Source of the DNA: a virus
DNA length: 64,000 nt
Virus record (IMG/VR): IMGVR_UViG_3300045988_162923
Direction: 5' to 3' (one strand)
Below are positions 1 to 64,000 of this stretch, in pieces. The notes beneath the pieces were generated by a model. That model saw only the letters and a program-made list of their open reading frames with translations. It searched no databases and was not told the origin of the DNA. Position 1 is the stretch's first letter. Each line of letters begins with the position of its first letter. The position numbers and the translations under genes were made by a program.

Positions 1-129
1 AGCTAATTGATATCTATAAACAAGACTGTCATATATAAAACCCTTTGTATGCTTTTCTATATTTTGTAAATTTTCTGATATAGCATCAAATTTTTGTGCT
101 TTTATCACCATTTTTTTTAATTCTTCCAT
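1..129 (-). CDS. hypothetical protein, N-terminal part only (gene continues past window start)
   Basis: ATG at 129-127 preceded by AAAGGA; frame stays open to the window edge (MEELKKMVIKAQKFDAISENLQNIEKH...). Confidence 0.3.
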   Translation of the reverse strand, partial: MEELKKMVIKAQKFDAISENLQNIEKHTKGFIYDSLVYRYQLA

Positions 130-133
130 ATTT

Positions 134-333
134 CATTCTTTATCCTTTAAAAATTCATTTCCAATTAAAGTCAATTCTTCTTCTAGTGGAGGCGAGTCTA
201 ACATAGATAAAAATTTAGTCCATTCATTTTGATTAAAAATTTTCTAATTGTTATTTTGATTTAGGTTTTCGGTTGTGTCTATCCTCTCCGGGCGGAGTAG
301 ACTCTATGGAATATTAATTTCATCCATTTGTAA
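134..333 (-). CDS. small hypothetical protein with 2 in-frame TAG codons
   Basis: ATG at 333; reading frame stays open only if TAG is sense; TGA stop at 134-136. Weak RBS. Confidence 0.2.
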
Positions 334-511
334 TGAAAGGTTTAAAATTTTTTCATAATGTATCTAGCCAATATTAGGATTACCTTTTCCACCATACACT
401 TTTGAATCATTAGAATCTATTGAAAGATTGATTCTATTATTTATTCCGTTACAATATAAAACTTCATTTCCATCTTTATCATAAAAAGTTGCGCTTTCAA
501 TATTTTGTATT

Positions 512-2251
512 TTAAAAATAATATTCACTCCTACTGACAATTTCATAATCTTCTACTAAAATCTAAGGAGTTATAATTCCGTTCCATTCATTAACAGAAC
601 AACGCCCAATAATATTAATAGATACTTTACCATGCTCAGTATATAATTTTTCAAATTCTTCTTCTGAAGATTTAAATTTAATAATACTAATTTTATTTGG
701 TAAAGTAATTTTTAATGTAGGATTTTTATTTTTTGCCATTAAATTTAAATTTTCAGCAGTCACAGGAACATCTTCCAAAGCAATTAATGCTTCTTCTATT
801 CCTTGTCCCCAAAGATTTTTTAATGTAGCAATATCTGTAATGTCTTCAGGCTTTACATCGACATTATGATAAATAAAATCAACTGTATAAGATGGAATAA
901 ACTAAACATTTTTTAATACTTCATTTGTAATCGTAATAAATAGCTAAATTTCATTATCAGTAATGCCACATCCAAAAGCATTAGGATGACCTTCCGCATA
1001 CATAATCAATCCAGTATCTTGACAGAACTATCTAAAGTCTTTCAAACTAGATTTATCATAACCACGTCCAGACCCTTCCCAAGTAATTGTTCCATCATTA
1101 TGAAATACTTTATTTAAAATTAAAACTGGACGCTAATATTTACTCATTAACTAATTAGCAATTAATCCTGTTAAATTGCGGTCTGCAGAAATATTATCTA
1201 ACTAAATAACTAATAATTTATTTTCTAATAAATTGTTAGCAGTAATTAAATTCTCAATAGTCTCTAAAGTAGCATCTCTAGTTCTAGTCTATCTATTTTT
1301 AATATTAGTACAATTTCTACAAGCCTATTCTACTCTAGGTTCGGCACTACCAGAACAACCACGCTTAGTTGAAGGAATTAATTCATATCCTTTAAAATCT
1401 AACATAGATTCAAATAATACTAATTTTTCTTCCTATGTGCCTACTCGAGTAACAGCATTCACTAAAGGAGCAATATAAAATGCTATATCAATTGGGGTAA
1501 TACTATTAGAAAAATGAAAAGCATCTCTATTAATCATTGTTCTAATAAATGGATTAATAATATGATTTAAACCTTTATCAATAAGTCGTTTAGTTTCATA
1601 ATCTCGTAAGTCCATCATATCAGCAATTAAGCCAAGAGCAACTAAATCTAATAAATCATCAGCATATGTTACATTCATTAATTTATCTAAATAACTACAA
1701 AACTTATAAACCATGCCGACGCCAGATAATGATTTAGTTGGATAGTTACATAACTAATTATTAATTATACAAGCATACTAAGAAACTTTATCTGCTTCGT
1801 GATGATCTATTACTAATACATCAATTCCATGCTCTTTAAGCTATTTATGTTCTTCATAATCATTTGATGAAGAATCTGGAGCAATAACCAATTTAATATC
1901 ATTGCCGATACTATCTAATAATATTCCATGCTATTTGCCTTCATGTACTCGATATGAAATATTATTTTCTACAAAAGCAGGACAGATTTTGTATAAATAA
2001 TTAATTAAAGCAGCCGCGGATGTATAGCCGTCACAATCGCTATCTATCTATATTAAAATTTTATCATTATTATTTATATGTGAAACCAGCATTATGGCCC
2101 CATTTTTTATATTCATAATAGTAGAAGGGTCAAGGATATCATCATCTGTAGTATGTAAATAATGATAGATATTTTTAATACCTCTATTATTAAGAATTTG
2201 TTCAATAGGACTATAACCTGGAATCATTGGGGCTTTTAAATGATATTCCAT
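512..2251 (-). CDS. recJ: RecJ-like DHH/DHHA1 single-strand DNA exonuclease (TAG-recoded, about 12 in-frame TAG)
   Basis: Manual translation through TAG gives IEQILNNRGI, IDSDCDGYTSAAALINYL (motif I), VLVIDHHEADKVS (DHH) and EGHPNAFGCGI (DHHA1 GGH). Joins table ORFs 2048..2326, 1433..1714 and 563..778 in one frame. TAA stop at 512-514. Confidence 0.75.
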
Positions 2252-2252
2252 A

Positions 2253-3044
2253 TTAAATAAATCCCCATTCAGCAAATTTTTCAAATCCACCAATTCTATT
2301 AATATATTCTCTAGCAATTTCAACAATTTCAGTAAAAGGAATCCCGTTTACTGTATCGTCTCCAATAGCACATTTATATTCTACAGGTTCCTCTAATTCT
2401 TGAGCTTTTAAAAAAGCATATATATTTATAGAAATATCTCCTTTAGATAGATCTTTACCATGTAGACCTCCTCCTGTGATGCTATCTCCCATGTCTGATC
2501 CTAATTTTCGGTTAGTGGCTCCAGCATCAACATTAATCCCACCGGACCAATCTCCTAAAGGATTCACTATAGCATCAGGATATTCTAATTGCAACTAAGG
2601 AGAATATACTCGGCTTTGACAAATAATTAATTTATTATCATCCTACTTATCTAAAATATATTTCCCATCAGACTAATATTTATTATAAATATTTCGAGCA
2701 ATTTTAGATAAATCACTTTGTTCTTCAGTAATAGGAGTACCTTTAAAAATTCCATTATCTCCACATCTTAAAGTAATCTGATTATTAGCTAAATTCTTAT
2801 TCTAAGGATGACATCCTAAAAAAACATGTTTTACTTCAGGACATATTCTTTTTACAATTTTTGATATTTCTTGAAATCTAAATATAAAAGAAGACTCTGA
2901 AGTAATATAGCATTCACCATGACCGATTAAAACTTCAACTGCTACTTGAGGATTATCCTAATTTTTATAAGCGAGGTCTACTAAAGCGCCGGCAATTCTA
3001 TCAGCAATTTTATCAGGATGAGCAGGATTTACTTTTTCAAACAT
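2253..3044 (-). CDS. truncated S-adenosylmethionine synthetase (MetK)-like protein, about 264 aa, with in-frame TAG
   Basis: MFEKVNPAHPDKIADRIAGALVD matches the MetK GHPDKIADQISDA motif. GGGLHGKDLSKGD matches MetK GGGAFSGKDPSKVD. ATG at 3044 after AAAGAAAGGA; TAA stop at 2253; 1 nt before the RecJ-like start. Confidence 0.6.
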
Positions 3045-3110
3045 TTAAATCAAAATCCTTTCTTTAAATAGTTGAAGAAATTTTTCTTTTCCTTCATCTA
3101 TTGGACTATT

Positions 3111-62237: not shown

Positions 62238-62263
62238 AATAATTCCTCCTTTATTTAATATTT

Positions 62264-63020
62264 TAAAGTTTTATTAAGCTAATAAAACATAATTATAAAC
62301 TTCACCTGTTTCATTACCAGTTTTTTCATCATCTAAGCCGGTATATAAAAGATTATTATTAGATAATGACATTTTGACAGTTCCATTTAATGCAGAAATC
62401 TCCTATTCTATACCATTTATAAGCATATACTATTTTAATTCAGATCCTGCAAATTTCTCTATTTTTATTAAAATAAACATCACCTTAGGTGTGAATTTTA
62501 AAGCTATTGTTCTTGATGTAGTACCATTACCAGTATAGCTTCCAGTATATACTTTTGCTGGTGGTTCAGTAATTGCCCAAGCTCCATTTTTAACTCCCAA
62601 GATTGAACCATTGTTTTCAGTTGATACTTTAGGTAAAGTTTTTTTATCAACGTATTTTTTATTAACTAACATTTTATCAAGAGGAGGGTCAGTAGTACTA
62701 CTAATATTAATTGTTCCATTTTCAATAGCTGTATTAATATCATTAATTGTTAATCCACTATCAAGTTTCTAATTAACATCAGTATCTAAATCAGCTAAGC
62801 CAACTTTATCTTTGTTAGCTAAATCGCCTAAATTATTTAAAGCATCAGGTGCTAAATAATCAGTTCCAGATACTGCGGTTGTAATTTTGCCATTTTCACC
62901 TTTAAGTATGCCGTTAAATTCAGTTGTAGTCTCTGAATTAATTCCTGTGTCATTAATACCTAATGCTCGTGTACCAACACTCATATTCTATATTTTCTAA
63001 TTACCTAAATATAAAGACAT
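62264..63020 (-). CDS. tail fibre/baseplate-like protein (6 TAG)
   Basis: GGAGGTGTAATAA then ATG at 63020; joins ORFs 62769..62984 and 62430..62672 in one frame via TAG. Confidence 0.4.
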
Positions 63021-63023
63021 TTA

Positions 63024-63572
63024 TTACACCTCCGTCCATGTTTTAATAATCGTTGTTGCTGATGATGTATTCGCCATCAAATCATCAACATATTTTTTAT
63101 TAACTGCATCATTATTTTCTATTGGAGAAGCAACACCATTTATCGTAACGTCTTCCATTTTTTTAAAACCAGTATCAGAATGAAGACCAATTTTAATACC
63201 AAAGACCTCTTTATCCGAGTTTGTTACATTAGCTCCAATTCTAATTGGTCGGTCTTCGTCCTAATTCCATAGCCAAAGTCCTTCTCCATTAAGTTCAGTA
63301 CCCAATCCATAACTATTATTTAAATAAAGACTTTCAGATTGAAAACCAGATGTTATTTGACTTATATAATTTCCTTTTTTAAAATAATTCCCAGTATCAG
63401 CCGTAAAATTTAAAGTATTAACATCGTTTTTTCCATCACCTATTTTAATTTTTCTTAAATCATCATAAATAATAATTTCGCCTTTTAAAGGAACAAAATT
63501 AGTTGCTTTTTTCCAATTAGCTTCTGTATCATGCTTCTAAATGATACGACCTTGGAATGTTTTATTTGCCAT
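63024..63572 (-). CDS. tail fibre protein with Mtd_N/hyaluronidase-N-like N-terminal motif (2 TAG)
   Basis: AAGGAGGAAATATA then ATG at 63572; TEANWKKATNFVPLKGEIIIYDDLRKIKIGDGK. Confidence 0.45.
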
Positions 63573-63596
63573 TATATTTCCTCCTTAAATAAAATT

Positions 63597-63648
63597 ATGG
63601 GGATAAACATCTTTAAAAATAGATATAAAGATATTTATCCCCATAATT
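63597..63648 (-). terminator. long inverted repeat / terminator hairpin
   Basis: TTATGGGGATAAA...TTTATCCCCATAA in AT-rich spacer; a second hairpin AAGTCCCTC-TTAAT-TGAGGGACTT lies at 63791-63814. Confidence 0.45.
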
Positions 63649-63817
63649 TTATATCTTTCTCAATCATCTATTTCCAAAAGAGTAAAATATATATATTCAA
63701 AATAAGTTATCAATTTCAAACTTATTATTTTCTAAAATATATTAAAATTTTAAATAATATAATTATATATTTTAGTCCAAAAAAAAATAAGTCCCTCAAT
63801 TAAGAGGGACTTAAAAA

Positions 63818-64000
63818 TTAAATATTTACAGTAGAAGATCCGCAATCAAAAATGACATAATTAGTAGTAGTATTAATACTAATTTCATTTAAAGTTGGCA
63901 TTTTATGAATGTGGTCTTCACGAGCATATTTAGTAGAAGTACCAACTGCCGCTGTACCTAAATTCTAAGGAGCAGTAGTAGCAGCCGCTGGAAGCGGCCG
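63818..64000 (-). CDS. C-terminal part of a structural protein (gene begins beyond window end)
   Basis: Open frame to window edge; TAA stop at 63818; two terminator hairpins downstream. Confidence 0.3.

Follow-up and report, generated by a model that had tools for sequence, protein, structure and literature searches.

In-frame TAG codons at glutamine positions and a conserved TAG-poor auxiliary block in a probable phage of gut Clostridia

We analysed the IMG/VR record IMGVR_UViG_3300045988_162923 over a stretch of 64,000 nt (hereafter, the window). All substantial ORFs lay on the minus strand, and the GC skew was negative throughout. When TAG was read as a sense codon, minus-strand ORFs of 60 aa or more covered 89.7% of the window, against 69.3% under code 11 and 71.0% when TGA was taken as sense. 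The ORFs ended in 66 TAA and 18 TGA, none in TAG, and nowhere in the window was readthrough of an in-frame TAA or TGA, or a frameshift, needed. Among ORFs of at least 50 aa, 33 of 79 (42%) contained one or more TAGs, 121 in all. Pfam domain matches ran across the TAGs in the genes for RecJ, primase, DnaB, the ATP-dependent ligase, PIN-PhoH, the CHAP+Amidase_2 endolysin, the radical SAM/SPASM protein and two methyltransferases. An initial annotation had proposed that TAG is translated here and had named these same genes; both points were borne out, and the frameshifts that it had suggested looking for as a mark of pseudogenes did not appear, TAG being the sole interrupter. The tail-fibre genes that it also listed as recoded are indeed TAG-rich, but their identity in the window comes from weak PHROG matches only. 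The genes are arranged as follows.

1..64000, minus strand: unidirectional gene array, read in code 15
512..2347, minus strand: RecJ-like exonuclease (Pfam), 15 TAGs, DHH domain at residues 64-207
2253..13167, minus strand: recoded replication module with MetK-like, primase, DnaB, YorH-like, GIY-YIG and ATP-dependent ligase genes (Pfam and TAG counts)
6864-7856, minus strand: AAA_24 ATPase, TAG-free and CAG-rich, embedded in the replication module
8010-8945, minus strand: YorF-like gene, TAG-free and CAG-rich, embedded in the replication module
13265..18269, minus strand: GyrA/ParC-like, RNase H and GyrB/ParE-like genes (Pfam), TAG at 0 of 36 Gln-type codons
18242..22714, minus strand: GIY-YIG/NUMOD homing endonuclease (3 TAGs), holin-like membrane protein (0), CHAP+Amidase_2 endolysin (3) and PIN-PhoH (4) (Pfam and TAG counts)
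22866..49398, minus strand: TAG-poor auxiliary block of 37 ORFs
28820..33062, minus strand: five-gene NAD sub-block (NAD synthase, Macro, NAMPT-like, PRPS-like, nicotinamidase), 0 TAG, CAG-rich
30079-31626, minus strand: NAMPT-like gene, adjoining the PRPS-like gene
31692-32528, minus strand: PRPS-like gene, adjoining the NAMPT-like gene
54792..63584, minus strand: TAG-rich late-type block with radical SAM/SPASM (10 TAGs), a large fibre-like protein and small tail-fibre-like genes
58685-60940, minus strand: large fibre-like protein, TAG at 15 of 24 Gln-type codons

Recoding spanned replication, lysis and tail-fibre-like genes, and the initial annotation was right in extending it to the first two. 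The most heavily recoded gene of the window was RecJ, in which TAG made up 15 of 18 Gln-type codons (binomial p = 4e-5 relative to the mean over recoded genes), and the large fibre-like protein is probably a virion component. In L001, a very close relative, the PIF1 helicase and NrdD genes also contained TAGs. The same replication genes of the sister lineage L002 (68% amino-acid identity) held far fewer, with none in primase or polymerase III alpha, 6 in RecJ and 1 in PIF1, and the heavy load in the window thus looks like progressive spread and not a fixed design.

Three invariant Gln residues of catalytic motifs were written as TAG, one in DnaB and two in PhoH.

5058..5060, minus strand: TAG on the invariant Q of SQLSR in DnaB (alignment to PDB 2q6t and 2vye; phage context MSAT-TAG-LNG)
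21536..21538, minus strand: TAG on the Q of DEAQN in PhoH (alignment to PDB 3b85)
21449..21451, minus strand: TAG on the Q of the GD-ITQVD motif in PhoH (alignment to PDB 3b85)

The DnaB alignment agrees with the initial annotation, which had read this TAG as Gln. The L002 codons opposite the window's TAGs were CAA (15), CAG (5), TAG (4) and others (17). At the 37 aligned sites where L002 itself has no TAG, Q was found in 20 (54%), a rate like the 58% self-conservation of true Gln codons; S was found at 3, K at 2 and Y at 1. The log-likelihood of TAG = Q was 43 natural-log units above that of the next best residue. Moreover, public protein sets already contain full-length homologues with Q at TAG sites, in the case of RecJ at all 15, and a 98% identical genome retained TAG at 56 of 58 TAG sites. 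At the level of sequence, these comparisons establish TAG as a sense codon standing where relatives and distant homologues have Gln. Reading TAG as glutamine is a device already known in phages, and genetic code 15, with TAA and TGA as stops, is part of our best overall explanation of the source phage, which we hold with good confidence.

The tRNA genes of the window form one cluster.

49445..54705, minus strand: tRNA cluster with no CUA anticodon
49445-49522, minus strand: tRNA Cys(GCA)
51269-51344, minus strand: tRNA Ala(UGC)
51722-51797, minus strand: tRNA Lys(UUU)
52192-52268, minus strand: tRNA Gly(UCC)
52318-52692, minus strand: tRNA Leu(UAA), intron-bearing
about 52835-52975, minus strand: permuted tRNA-like element
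54169-54705, minus strand: tRNA Thr(UGU), interrupted by an endonuclease ORF

As the initial annotation had noted, the 64-kb window contained no tRNA(CUA) detectable by intron-aware ARAGORN and Rfam, and the window with 10 kb on one side of it yielded neither a suppressor tRNA nor a release factor or aminoacyl-tRNA synthetase. On sister-lineage contigs there is a 90-nt tRNA(CUA) whose acceptor end is of the Gln type (unpaired 1-72, G73) and whose variable arm is long. It belongs to a second tRNA array, flanked there by tRNA-Val and tRNA-Tyr, and the relatives' second array also holds Ile UAU and Arg UCU.

L030 7965-8054 and L033 3369-3458, minus strand: family tRNA(CUA); the marker loci L015 and L018 are on these IMG/VR contigs too

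Another 5 AT-rich contigs (group 1-type) and 9 contigs of group 2 had this tRNA as well, and a more distant relative had a 75-nt CUA tRNA with a like acceptor end, 8 kb from its MVP gene. Exact CUA-tRNA patterns had no match on the contig of the closest IMG/VR relative (L008) or on the L010 contig. The same tRNA(CUA), or a non-canonical version of it, would be expected elsewhere in the source phage genome. By textbook identity rules, a long variable arm with G73 would also suit seryl-tRNA synthetase, and some Firmicutes make Gln-tRNA indirectly.

TAG took 7 of 231 Gln-type codons in the auxiliary block and 113 of 355 in the rest of the window (Fisher p = 3e-20). The block encodes flotillin, phosphoesterases, a kinase, NADAR, the NAD genes, RNA ligase, RNase T, RlaP, an MVP-like protein, a DUF2828/DUF7788 gene, a methyltransferase and an SLH protein, i.e., auxiliary and probably counter-defence genes. 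Its 7 TAGs are spread over 5 ORFs, making it TAG-poor, not TAG-free; one stands at codon 2 of an ORF whose start is doubtful, and two are in a doubtful 60-aa ORF without ATG. Many small, codon-unoptimised ORFs at 37-41 kb were TAG-free. The GyrA, RNase H and GyrB genes lacked TAG altogether (P = 1.5e-7), yet their codon usage was AT-rich and native-like (class B), and they are separated from the block by the TAG-bearing homing endonuclease, endolysin and PhoH. The initial annotation had described one contiguous TAG-free block including the topoisomerase; a large block is real, but neither its contiguity with the topoisomerase nor its complete freedom from TAG stood.

An orthologue was detected in L002, L005 or L006 for 20 TAG-free window genes, and in every case it too was TAG-free, at 37-98% identity to these lineages (most 40-82%); the block orthologues in 43% GC relatives were TAG-free except for one of two RNA-ligase matches (L009, 2 TAGs). 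Recoding is kept out of the topoisomerase and RNase H genes and of the 26 kb auxiliary block, and this exclusion is conserved in diverged relatives. It is strong and not absolute, since in L001 the genes for AAA_24 and DNA polymerase III alpha contain a TAG each. Between lineages, the MVP-like protein was 82% identical, against 64-69% for RecJ. The methyltransferase and its neighbour (46072-47869) were 97% identical to L006 amid flanking genes at 50-80%, showing that cassettes move between lineages. The NAD sub-block is the sole lineage-specific part of the block, missing at the corresponding position in the sister lineage (L005, L006). The NARP1 NAD+ reconstitution pathway consists of Adps plus Namat (bioRxiv 10.1101/2024.02.11.579819), and the adjacent PRPS-like and NAMPT-like genes, accompanied by Macro and NADAR in a phage, resemble it at the Pfam level only; unlike NARP1, the window's sub-block adds NAD synthase and nicotinamidase.

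TAG-bearing genes (class A) divided their Gln codons among CAA (.57), CAG (.06) and TAG (.38), with ATA at.27 of Ile and TTA at.71 of Leu codons. In TAG-free, CAG-rich genes (class C), CAG made up.87 of Gln, AAG.62 of Lys and CGT.55 of Arg codons, and ATA and TTA fell to.01 and.09. Many TAG-free block genes share this distinct set (CAG, AAG, CTT, CGT, no ATA), and in several genes just 0 to 1 of the 10 to 32 Gln codons were CAA. Class C settles on a single favoured codon in each family and nearly lacks ATA, AGG and GGG, which is the full signature of translational selection. Class C genes had a GC content of 0.33-0.44, against 0.25-0.31, as the initial annotation had remarked of the block; third positions still favoured T over C (AAT.91, GAT.89), so the bias is codon-specific and not a carry-over of GC. 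This usage was retained in diverged lineages, the relatives' MVP having 1 CAA against 27 CAG, 6 AAA against 56 AAG and 0 ATA. The class C set may be host-like.

The window is likely part of a ~200 kb phage that infects gut Clostridia. There are hundreds of near-identical contigs, 190-200 kb long, relatives were binned with MAGs of Clostridium, Agathobacter, Acutalibacteraceae and Lachnospiraceae, and an SLH-domain protein is encoded; no terminase gene was found within the window. The replication module probably resembles that of SPbeta-like Bacillus phages, with which the YorF, YorH, YomU tube and YonG Pfam families, a DNA polymerase III alpha-type replicase, a DnaB-like helicase and a primase are shared. 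Those phages use the standard code, whereas the source phage is larger, reads TAG as sense and has large arrays of tRNA genes; no nucleotide similarity was found, and the best GenBank phage match was at most 42% identical in protein. In T4-type codon partition, the A-ending codons that phage tRNAs read are frequent in one class of genes and rare in a host-adapted class. Phage tRNAs likewise serve the A-ending codons of one class here, but the partition includes a reassigned stop and is sharp enough to give the low CAA counts above.

Code-15 gut phages have been surveyed in the crAss-like, Lak, Sapphire, Agate, Topaz, Garnet and Amethyst clades (Borges et al., bioRxiv 10.1101/2021.08.26.457843), and alternatively coded gut phages have been validated by proteomics (PMC9523058). 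In that survey, 26-71% of genes per clade have in-frame stops, a range that includes the window's 42%. The window and its family also share with those phages TAG as Gln beside a predicted standard-code host, recoded lysis, structural and homing endonuclease genes, a standard-code-compatible gene subset, and a suppressor tRNA(CUA) that is not detectable in every genome; some clades have ~200 kb genomes and Firmicutes hosts. Replication genes are described there as "variably" recoded, and as "mostly" recoded in Lak phages, which the window resembles in its heavily recoded replication genes, unlike the crAss-like and Agate genomes of the survey's Fig. 4. The parts of the survey consulted do not mention a whole-codon-table shift of the kind that marks the TAG-free set here, and the long variable arm of the family CUA tRNA is a further difference.

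Could the TAGs be real stops, reflecting pseudogenes, assembly errors or the decay of an element, or could they code Ser, Tyr or pyrrolysine? The window has no suppressor tRNA, and the family CUA tRNA has the Ser-like long arm and G73, but we find this hardly credible, given that only TAG interrupts genes, that TAG persists in the 98% identical genome, that hundreds of near-identical contigs exist, that Q far outnumbers S, Y and K opposite TAG, that three catalytic-motif Gln are TAG, and that no pyl genes were seen in the Pfam-annotated window. The initial annotation's title had called the distribution inverted. A design in which replication is deliberately suppressor-gated and the auxiliaries are not, a strategy unlike other recoded phages, would suit the TAGs in RecJ, primase, DnaB and ligase, those in PIF1 and NrdD of L001 and the significant over-recoding of RecJ. 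Nevertheless, recoding extends to lysis and tail-fibre-like genes, as it does in other clades, the survey had already described variable recoding in replication genes, and L002 replication genes carry far fewer TAGs; the term is therefore not supported, and such a design is very improbable.

The initial annotation had offered two readings of the block, translation before the suppressor exists or recent acquisition. Foreign DNA that had not yet accumulated TAG and AT-rich drift would explain the higher GC, the lineage-restricted NAD genes and the 97% identical cassette. We regard it as rather unlikely, because the MVP-like, DUF2828, RNA ligase, RlaP, NADAR and phosphoesterase genes are common to lineages 40-82% identical and, save for the L009 RNA ligase, lack TAG there and show a codon bias as strong or stronger; MVP conservation exceeds that of RecJ, third-position T is favoured, the class C AAA_24 and YorF-like genes are inside the core replication module, and class B genes are TAG-free with native usage. 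TAG freedom in diverged relatives and the distinct codon set argue more for selection on translatability by the host machinery than for recent acquisition, so the first reading fits better. It is also possible, though on balance we doubt it, that highly expressed genes shun TAG because suppression is slow or leaky, an efficiency effect unrelated to the timing of the code switch. The translational-selection signature of class C genes, which are among the most conserved between lineages, agrees with this; GyrA, GyrB, RNase H and the small ORFs at 37-41 kb, however, avoid TAG without codon optimisation, and the probable virion protein at 58685-60940 is among the most TAG-rich.

Judging from codon content alone, we think it likely that this phage is translated in two tiers. 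The first would comprise genes, free of TAG, that the unmodified host translation system could make, many of them shunning ATA, TTA, AGA, GGA, CAA and AAA and favouring CAG, AAG, CTT, CGT and GGT; these probably serve early or very abundant functions, such as topoisomerase, the Sak4-like ATPase, NAD rebuilding, RNA repair, the MVP-like protein and flotillin. The second would depend on phage tRNAs, with TAG for 38% of Gln codons and an abundance of A-ending codons that may be read by Lys UUU, Gly UCC, Leu UAA and Thr UGU of the window, and by the Ile UAU and Arg UCU of the relatives' second array.

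The window has 31% GC with a GC skew that is negative throughout, and its minus strand holds all the substantial ORFs. When this strand was translated with the standard bacterial code, ORFs of at least 60 aa covered 69.3% of the window, and the coverage increased to 89.7% when TAG was read as a sense codon, giving ORFs that tile the strand with short gaps. The control translation with TGA as sense covered 71.0%. With TAG as sense (code 15), the gene set contained 121 in-frame TAG codons, no in-frame TAA or TGA, and no frameshifts. Among the 79 ORFs of at least 50 aa, 33 carried TAG and 46 had none, and the ORF terminators in the window were TAA (66) and TGA (18). 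Pfam domain matches crossed the TAG codons in RecJ, DnaB, PhoH, the ligase, the CHAP protein, and the radical SAM protein. Within this gene set, TAG codons were evenly placed along the genes with no excess in the last decile, and so there was no sign that TAG doubles as a stop. The in-frame TAG recoding reported in the initial annotation was thus confirmed. A decaying prophage or an array of pseudogenes was rejected as the source of these codons, because TAG was the sole interruption, many contigs of 190-200 kb bear the same genes, and the sites are kept in L001, the locus of a 98% identical genome, where TAG was found at 56 of 58 sites and CAG at the other 2; this conservation excludes decay or assembly error. 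In all the TAG-bearing genes of the window, the base following TAG was C in 19% and G in 19% of cases, vs. 2% and 40% after CAA (chi-square p = 4e-7), a difference that may stem from dinucleotide bias or from an influence of codon context on suppression.

The gene identities assigned from the sequence (RecJ, primase, DnaB, ligase, endolysin, PhoH, and radical SAM, among others) agreed with the Pfam matches. RecJ showed the DHH and RecJ_OB domains, and Pfam also identified a short MetK-like protein, a Toprim primase, DnaB, an AAA_24 ATPase, a YorF-like protein, an ATP-dependent DNA ligase, GyrA/ParC-like and GyrB/ParE-like proteins, RNase H, a CHAP+Amidase_2 endolysin, PIN-PhoH, flotillin, phosphoesterases, an AAA_33 kinase, NADAR, NAD synthase, Macro, NAMPT-like, PRPS-like, and isochorismatase-type proteins, RNA ligase, RNase T, RlaP, an Eco57I-type methyltransferase, an SLH protein, and a radical SAM/SPASM protein. 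Two GIY-YIG genes were found, one of them also with the NUMOD domains typical of homing endonucleases, and an MVP-like gene adjoins a DUF2828/DUF7788 vWA gene. The tail-fibre label was based on weak PHROG hits. A gyrB gene split by a GIY-YIG gene was considered and rejected, as the GyrB N-terminal motif (DYGIKDIRTLEGMEAIRIRPGMFIG, 18174-18269) carries on 5' of the first ATG. This implied a non-ATG start, which overlaps the end of the TAG-bearing GIY-YIG/NUMOD homing endonuclease gene (18242-19000).

Gene sets of the window (minus strand)
49545-50405: second methyltransferase, by PHROG match and not Pfam
25516-26148, 34785-37074, and 38149-38979: RNA-repair-type set (AAA_33 kinase, RNA ligase, RNase T-like exonuclease, RlaP nucleotidyltransferase, several metallophosphoesterases)
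28394-33062: NAD module (NADAR, NAD synthase, Macro, NAMPT-like, PRPS-like, nicotinamidase)

The first reading of this DNA had deduced glutamine from a TAG at the invariant Gln of the DnaB SQLNR motif, and the alignments bore this out. The DnaB codon at 5058-5060 (MSAT-TAG-LNG) falls on the catalytic-motif Gln of ALSQLSR in 2q6t and 2vye, and the PhoH codons at 21536-21538 (ISEA-TAG-NMD vs. LDEAQNTT in 3b85) and 21449-21451 (DDKT-TAG-VD vs. GD-ITQVD in 3b85) also stand at a catalytic-motif Gln. The window was then compared with L002, a relative represented by a contig of 189 kb, with a mean protein identity of 68%. The L002 codons opposite the window TAGs were CAA (15), CAG (5), TAG (4), and 14 other codons (17), and CAA or CAG stood opposite 20 of 37 window TAG sites. 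Since CAA is two substitutions away from TAG, its alignment is not explained by mutational proximity. The log-likelihood of TAG being Gln, calculated with the substitution frequencies observed in the same window-L002 alignments, was 43 natural-log units above that of the next best residue, and L002 has Q at 54% of the TAG sites vs. 58% of the genuine Gln codons. In a public protein collection, RecJ is present as a 579-aa protein with Q at all 15 TAG sites, from contigs of 198-238 kb, indicating that automated pipelines have already called this lineage in code 15. Pyrrolysine decoding was rejected, as no Pyl genes were among the Pfam hits and TAG behaves as Gln; the ARAGORN 'Pyl' label is that tool's name for any CUA anticodon. 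Collectively, this comparative evidence strongly supported that TAG encodes Gln.

The analysis of TAG usage gave 7 of 231 Gln-type codons in the auxiliary block at 22866-49398 vs. 113 of 355 elsewhere in the window (Fisher p = 3e-20). The block, which had been described as TAG-free, is therefore TAG-poor, with seven such codons present. The genes for GyrA, RNase H, and GyrB had TAG at none of their 36 Gln-type codons (P = 1.5e-7), and the most over-recoded genes were RecJ (15/18), the fibre-like gene at 58685-60940 (15/24), and that at 62274-63020 (5/5). Recoding extended to replication, lysis, and tail-fibre-like genes and spared the topoisomerase and RNase H genes, two genes of the replication module, and the auxiliary block. 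The claim that recoding reaches replication and lysis genes, and not structural genes alone, was borne out by RecJ and by the TAG-bearing DnaB, ligase, and endolysin genes. According to a survey of alternatively coded gut phages, structural and lysis genes are recoded in all clades, replication genes are variably so, and mostly in Lak phages, and genes with in-frame stops amount to 26-71% (Borges et al., bioRxiv 10.1101/2021.08.26.457843). Since lysis and tail-fibre-like genes are recoded here as well, the distribution is within the surveyed range, and we do not uphold its description as inverted. The only features that fit clades named in that survey, such as Sapphire and Jade, are the genome size of about 200 kb, the recoding of TAG, and a Firmicutes-type host; no terminase for clade placement was found in the window or in the loci retrieved. 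The TAG counts (not fractions) in RecJ, primase, DNA polymerase III alpha, and PIF1 were 15, 3, 1, and 8 here and in L001 vs. 6, 0, 0, and 1 in L002, which suggests that TAG is spreading into replication genes in the lineage of the window.

The SPbeta-named protein families present in L001 by Pfam, the SLH protein of the window, and the binning of relatives in Clostridium, Agathobacter, Acutalibacteraceae, Eubacterium, and Lachnospiraceae MAGs, bin membership being weak evidence, point to gut Clostridia as the host. Megablast of 25 kb of the window found no match among GenBank phages, and tblastn with the MVP-like and GyrA proteins found only relatives with protein identity of at most 42% among GenBank phage records. 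Contigs of 164-175 kb from this phage family were observed in MAGs named 'uncultured Mollicutes bacterium' and 'Clostridium sp. SUG910', and these are probably phage genomes binned as bacteria.

Contigs of the phage family in these MAGs
L072 and L075: CAMELE01...
L070 and L073: JALFQD01...

The genes of the window fell into three codon classes. In class A, formed by 26 TAG-bearing genes, the Gln codons were CAA (.57), CAG (.06), and TAG (.38), and A-ending codons were heavily used, with AAA at.89 of Lys, TTA at.71 of Leu, GGA at.48 of Gly, ATA at.27 of Ile, and AGA at.44 of Arg. Class B, with 13 TAG-free, CAA-rich genes that include the gyrase genes, was near class A minus TAG. Class C was formed by 16 TAG-free, CAG-rich genes, among them those for AAA_24, the YorF-like protein, flotillin, the NAD proteins, RNA ligase, RNase T, the MVP-like protein, DUF2828, and the SLH protein. 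The fractions in this class were CAG.87 of Gln, AAG.62 of Lys, CTT.46 of Leu, CGT.55 of Arg, GGT.64 of Gly, and ATA.01 of Ile. In the two-fold pyrimidine families, class C favoured T over C (AAT.91), indicating that its preference is codon-specific and no general shift in GC. The tRNAs of the window for Lys (UUU), Gly (UCC), Leu (UAA), and Thr (UGU) match the A-ending codons used by class A and avoided by class C, and the relatives supply in addition tRNAs for Ile (UAU) and Arg (UCU).

Two explanations had been offered for the TAG-poor block, i.e., that its genes can be translated before the suppressor exists or that they were recently acquired. The TAG-free ORFs form a standard-code-compatible subset that is conserved in relatives: for 20 of the 20 TAG-free window genes with a detected orthologue, the orthologues in L002 or in the sister-lineage loci L005 and L006 were also TAG-free, at 37-98% identity. 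In the more distant 43% GC relatives, the block orthologues lacked TAG, with the exception of one of two RNA-ligase hits (2 TAGs). The class C codon signature was as strong or stronger in relatives, where MVP had 1 CAA vs. 27 CAG and 6 AAA vs. 56 AAG, and DUF2828 had 0 AAA vs. 38 AAG. Between lineages, the MVP-like protein was 82% identical vs. 64-69% for RecJ. The retained TAG-free state and codon signature, together with this higher identity, argue for long-term selection, and we consider the best account of the TAG-free genes to be a conserved set that fits host translation. Recent acquisition was the less likely explanation. The exception to this conservation is the five-gene NAD sub-block that follows NADAR (28820-33062), which is missing between NADAR and RNA ligase in L005 and L006. 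Within the NAD module, adjacent genes carry Pribosyltran plus Pribosyl_synth and NAPRTase plus NAMPT_N, assignments made by Pfam family only. This PRPS-like and NAMPT-like pair resembles, as a lead from sequence families, the NARP1 counter-defence pathway, in which Adps is a PRPS-like ADPR-pyrophosphate synthetase and Namat a NAMPT-like transferase (bioRxiv 10.1101/2024.02.11.579819).

Other features of the block were also observed. The MVP-like gene (828 aa, with Vault_3 and MVP shoulder domains) and its DUF2828/DUF7788 vWA neighbour, at 41618-45954, are TAG-free and strongly codon-optimised, and their conservation in the sister lineage is 82% and 72%; homologues were found at 40% in 'uncultured phage' records of 462-735 kb and at about 44% in Bacteroidota and Cytophagales MAGs. 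At 46072-47869, the Eco57I-type methyltransferase and an adjoining 203-aa gene were 97% identical to L006, with neighbours at 50-80%, which points to a cassette recently exchanged between lineages. The RNA-repair-type genes of the window are all without TAG, and the set could be involved in tRNA repair or in the maturation of odd tRNA genes.

Several such genes were found in the tRNA cluster. The tRNA-Leu(UAA) at 52692-52318 (minus strand) has an insert of 289 nt between nucleotides 34 and 35, the classic group I intron site of tRNA-Leu. Its 5' exon ends in U and the insert in G, and the spliced sequence was recognized by ARAGORN as tRNA-Leu. Plain ARAGORN and Rfam missed the interrupted gene, and the corresponding array of L006 has an uninterrupted tRNA-Leu(UAA). 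The CCAGACUAC...GUAGU segment of the insert is P7-like in appearance; an Rfam scan of the tRNA region at E <= 1 recognized neither a group I intron nor a ribozyme, nor any other family. An exact search of IMG/VR with exon 1 gave no match, and no related loci were found for the protein of 50406-51233. In the tRNA-Thr(UGU) at 54705-54169 (minus strand), about 461 nt are inserted after nucleotide 36, and these are almost wholly an I-Ssp6803I-type PD-(D/E)xK endonuclease ORF, frameshifted in the window, whose L005 homologue matches Pfam PDDEXK_5; this leaves no room for a ribozyme core. The exon-insert boundaries sit in a perfect 14-bp helix, and three compensatory changes between the window and L005 in the acceptor stem indicated that this tRNA is still under selection.

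tRNA-type loci
tRNA-Thr(UGU) locus: window 54169-54705, minus strand, and L005 3465-4003, both interrupted; L006 2548-2623, same site, uninterrupted
Permuted tRNA-like element: window about 52835-52975, minus strand; L006 about 3640-3790; 13 IMG/VR loci (L007-L019)
Oddities of the 43% GC relatives: L016 598-721 and 2031-2104; L026 8738-9082

Circularly permuted tRNA genes occur in some algae and one archaeon, and their hallmarks are a 3' part upstream of the 5' part in one transcript, pairing of leader and trailer, and halves that form a cloverleaf. The element in the window, which has a promoter-like sequence of its own, encodes in order an anticodon-type hairpin (GUA loop), the T arm, the 3' acceptor strand plus CCA, 6 nt, the 5' acceptor strand, the D arm, and a trailer that pairs with the leader. 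This order and the junction (CCA, 6 nt, 5' acceptor strand) were kept in 15 sequences, among which a compensatory pair was seen once in the leader-trailer helix and twice in the T stem; C2 and C71 of the acceptor stem are mismatched, and conservation does not extend to U33. Possible identities of this candidate are a permuted tRNA, a two-piece tRNA, and a tRNA-like decoy. These results showed that standard tRNA scans miss several tRNA-type genes of the cluster. Between tRNA-Lys and tRNA-Ala, a GC-richer spacer of 378 nt (51345-51721, minus strand) lacks ORFs and Rfam matches and possibly encodes a structured RNA. In the 43% GC relatives, we observed a 124-nt tRNA-like gene with about 47 nt inserted in the anticodon region, for which the ARAGORN call varies by contig, a tRNA with an 8-nt anticodon loop (GUUAAAAG), and a tmRNA gene within the tRNA array.

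In line with the initial annotation, tRNA scans of the window, including intron-aware ARAGORN and Rfam, found no CUA tRNA, and none was present in the 10 kb beyond RecJ or in the first tRNA array of L005 and L006. Neither interrupted tRNA nor the permuted element was retained as the amber suppressor: only a Leu(UAA) junction fits the rule of an exon ending in U and an intron ending in G, the positional orthologue of the second interrupted gene is an intact tRNA-Thr(UGU), and the permuted element carries GUA. A tRNA-Gln(CUG) of the relatives mutated to CUA was also rejected, since 10 of 10 copies read CUG. Using the permuted element as a lineage marker, 13 IMG/VR contigs were recovered; two of them (161 and 197 kb), as well as other AT-rich (group 1-type) and 43% GC (group 2) contigs, carry a CUA tRNA of 90-91 nt. 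This tRNA has the anticodon loop CUCUAAA, a U1·U72 mismatch, G73, and a variable arm of four base pairs, sits in a second tRNA array (10-30 tRNAs) with tRNA-Val(UAC) on one side and tRNA-Tyr(GUA) on the other, and resembles none of the remaining array tRNAs. In a more distant relative, a CUA tRNA of 75 nt with an acceptor end of this kind is located 8 kb from the MVP gene.

CUA tRNAs of the family
L030, 7965-8054
L033, 3369-3458, minus strand
L024, 12986-13076, minus strand
L027, 3041-3131
L070, 1672-1746 (75 nt)

By the E. coli identity rules, an unpaired 1-72 position and G73 are Gln-type features, and a long arm with G73 is Ser-type. The family tRNA would combine both sets of traits, and the comparative codon data say Gln. 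Exact-pattern scans for this tRNA gave no match in the two IMG/VR contigs closest to the window, and thus we infer the suppressor of the window genome from its relatives. In unrelated IMG/VR phages (L028, L032, and L037), a similar long CUA form was observed in tandem with a 75-nt Gln-like CUA tRNA.

A tentative reading, to which we give less than an even chance, is that the tRNAs of this phage family gate a whole block of the codon table beyond TAG, the gated codons being TAG, CAA, ATA, TTA, AGA, GGA, and AAA. Before the switch, the phage would make a conserved proteome written only in host-preferred codons, i.e., NAD rebuilding, RNA repair, MVP-like and flotillin shells, topoisomerase, and a Sak4-like ATPase. 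The switch would rest on an amber suppressor that is atypical in joining a Gln-type acceptor end to a long variable arm of class II type. It would also rest on tRNA genes whose maturation is unusual, one with an intron, one with an endonuclease-only insertion, and one permuted, and the phage RNA ligase and repair set might mature them. Taken alone, the recoding is a further example of a known phenomenon in one more lineage, and these genes are already translated with Q at TAG in public protein sets. The standard-code-compatible set conserved across diverged relatives provides a clean, quantified case, and its coincidence with a separate host-style codon dialect gives a sharper, testable code-switch model. 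The long variable arm of the family CUA tRNA raises the question of Gln charging in Firmicutes. If codon gating is true, standard tRNA scans would miss part of the code-change machinery, and missed odd tRNAs could help explain why a suppressor is detectable in only about 40% of TAG-recoded phages. The presence of several non-canonical tRNA genes in one cluster suggests that suppressor tRNAs may be under-detected in recoded phages.
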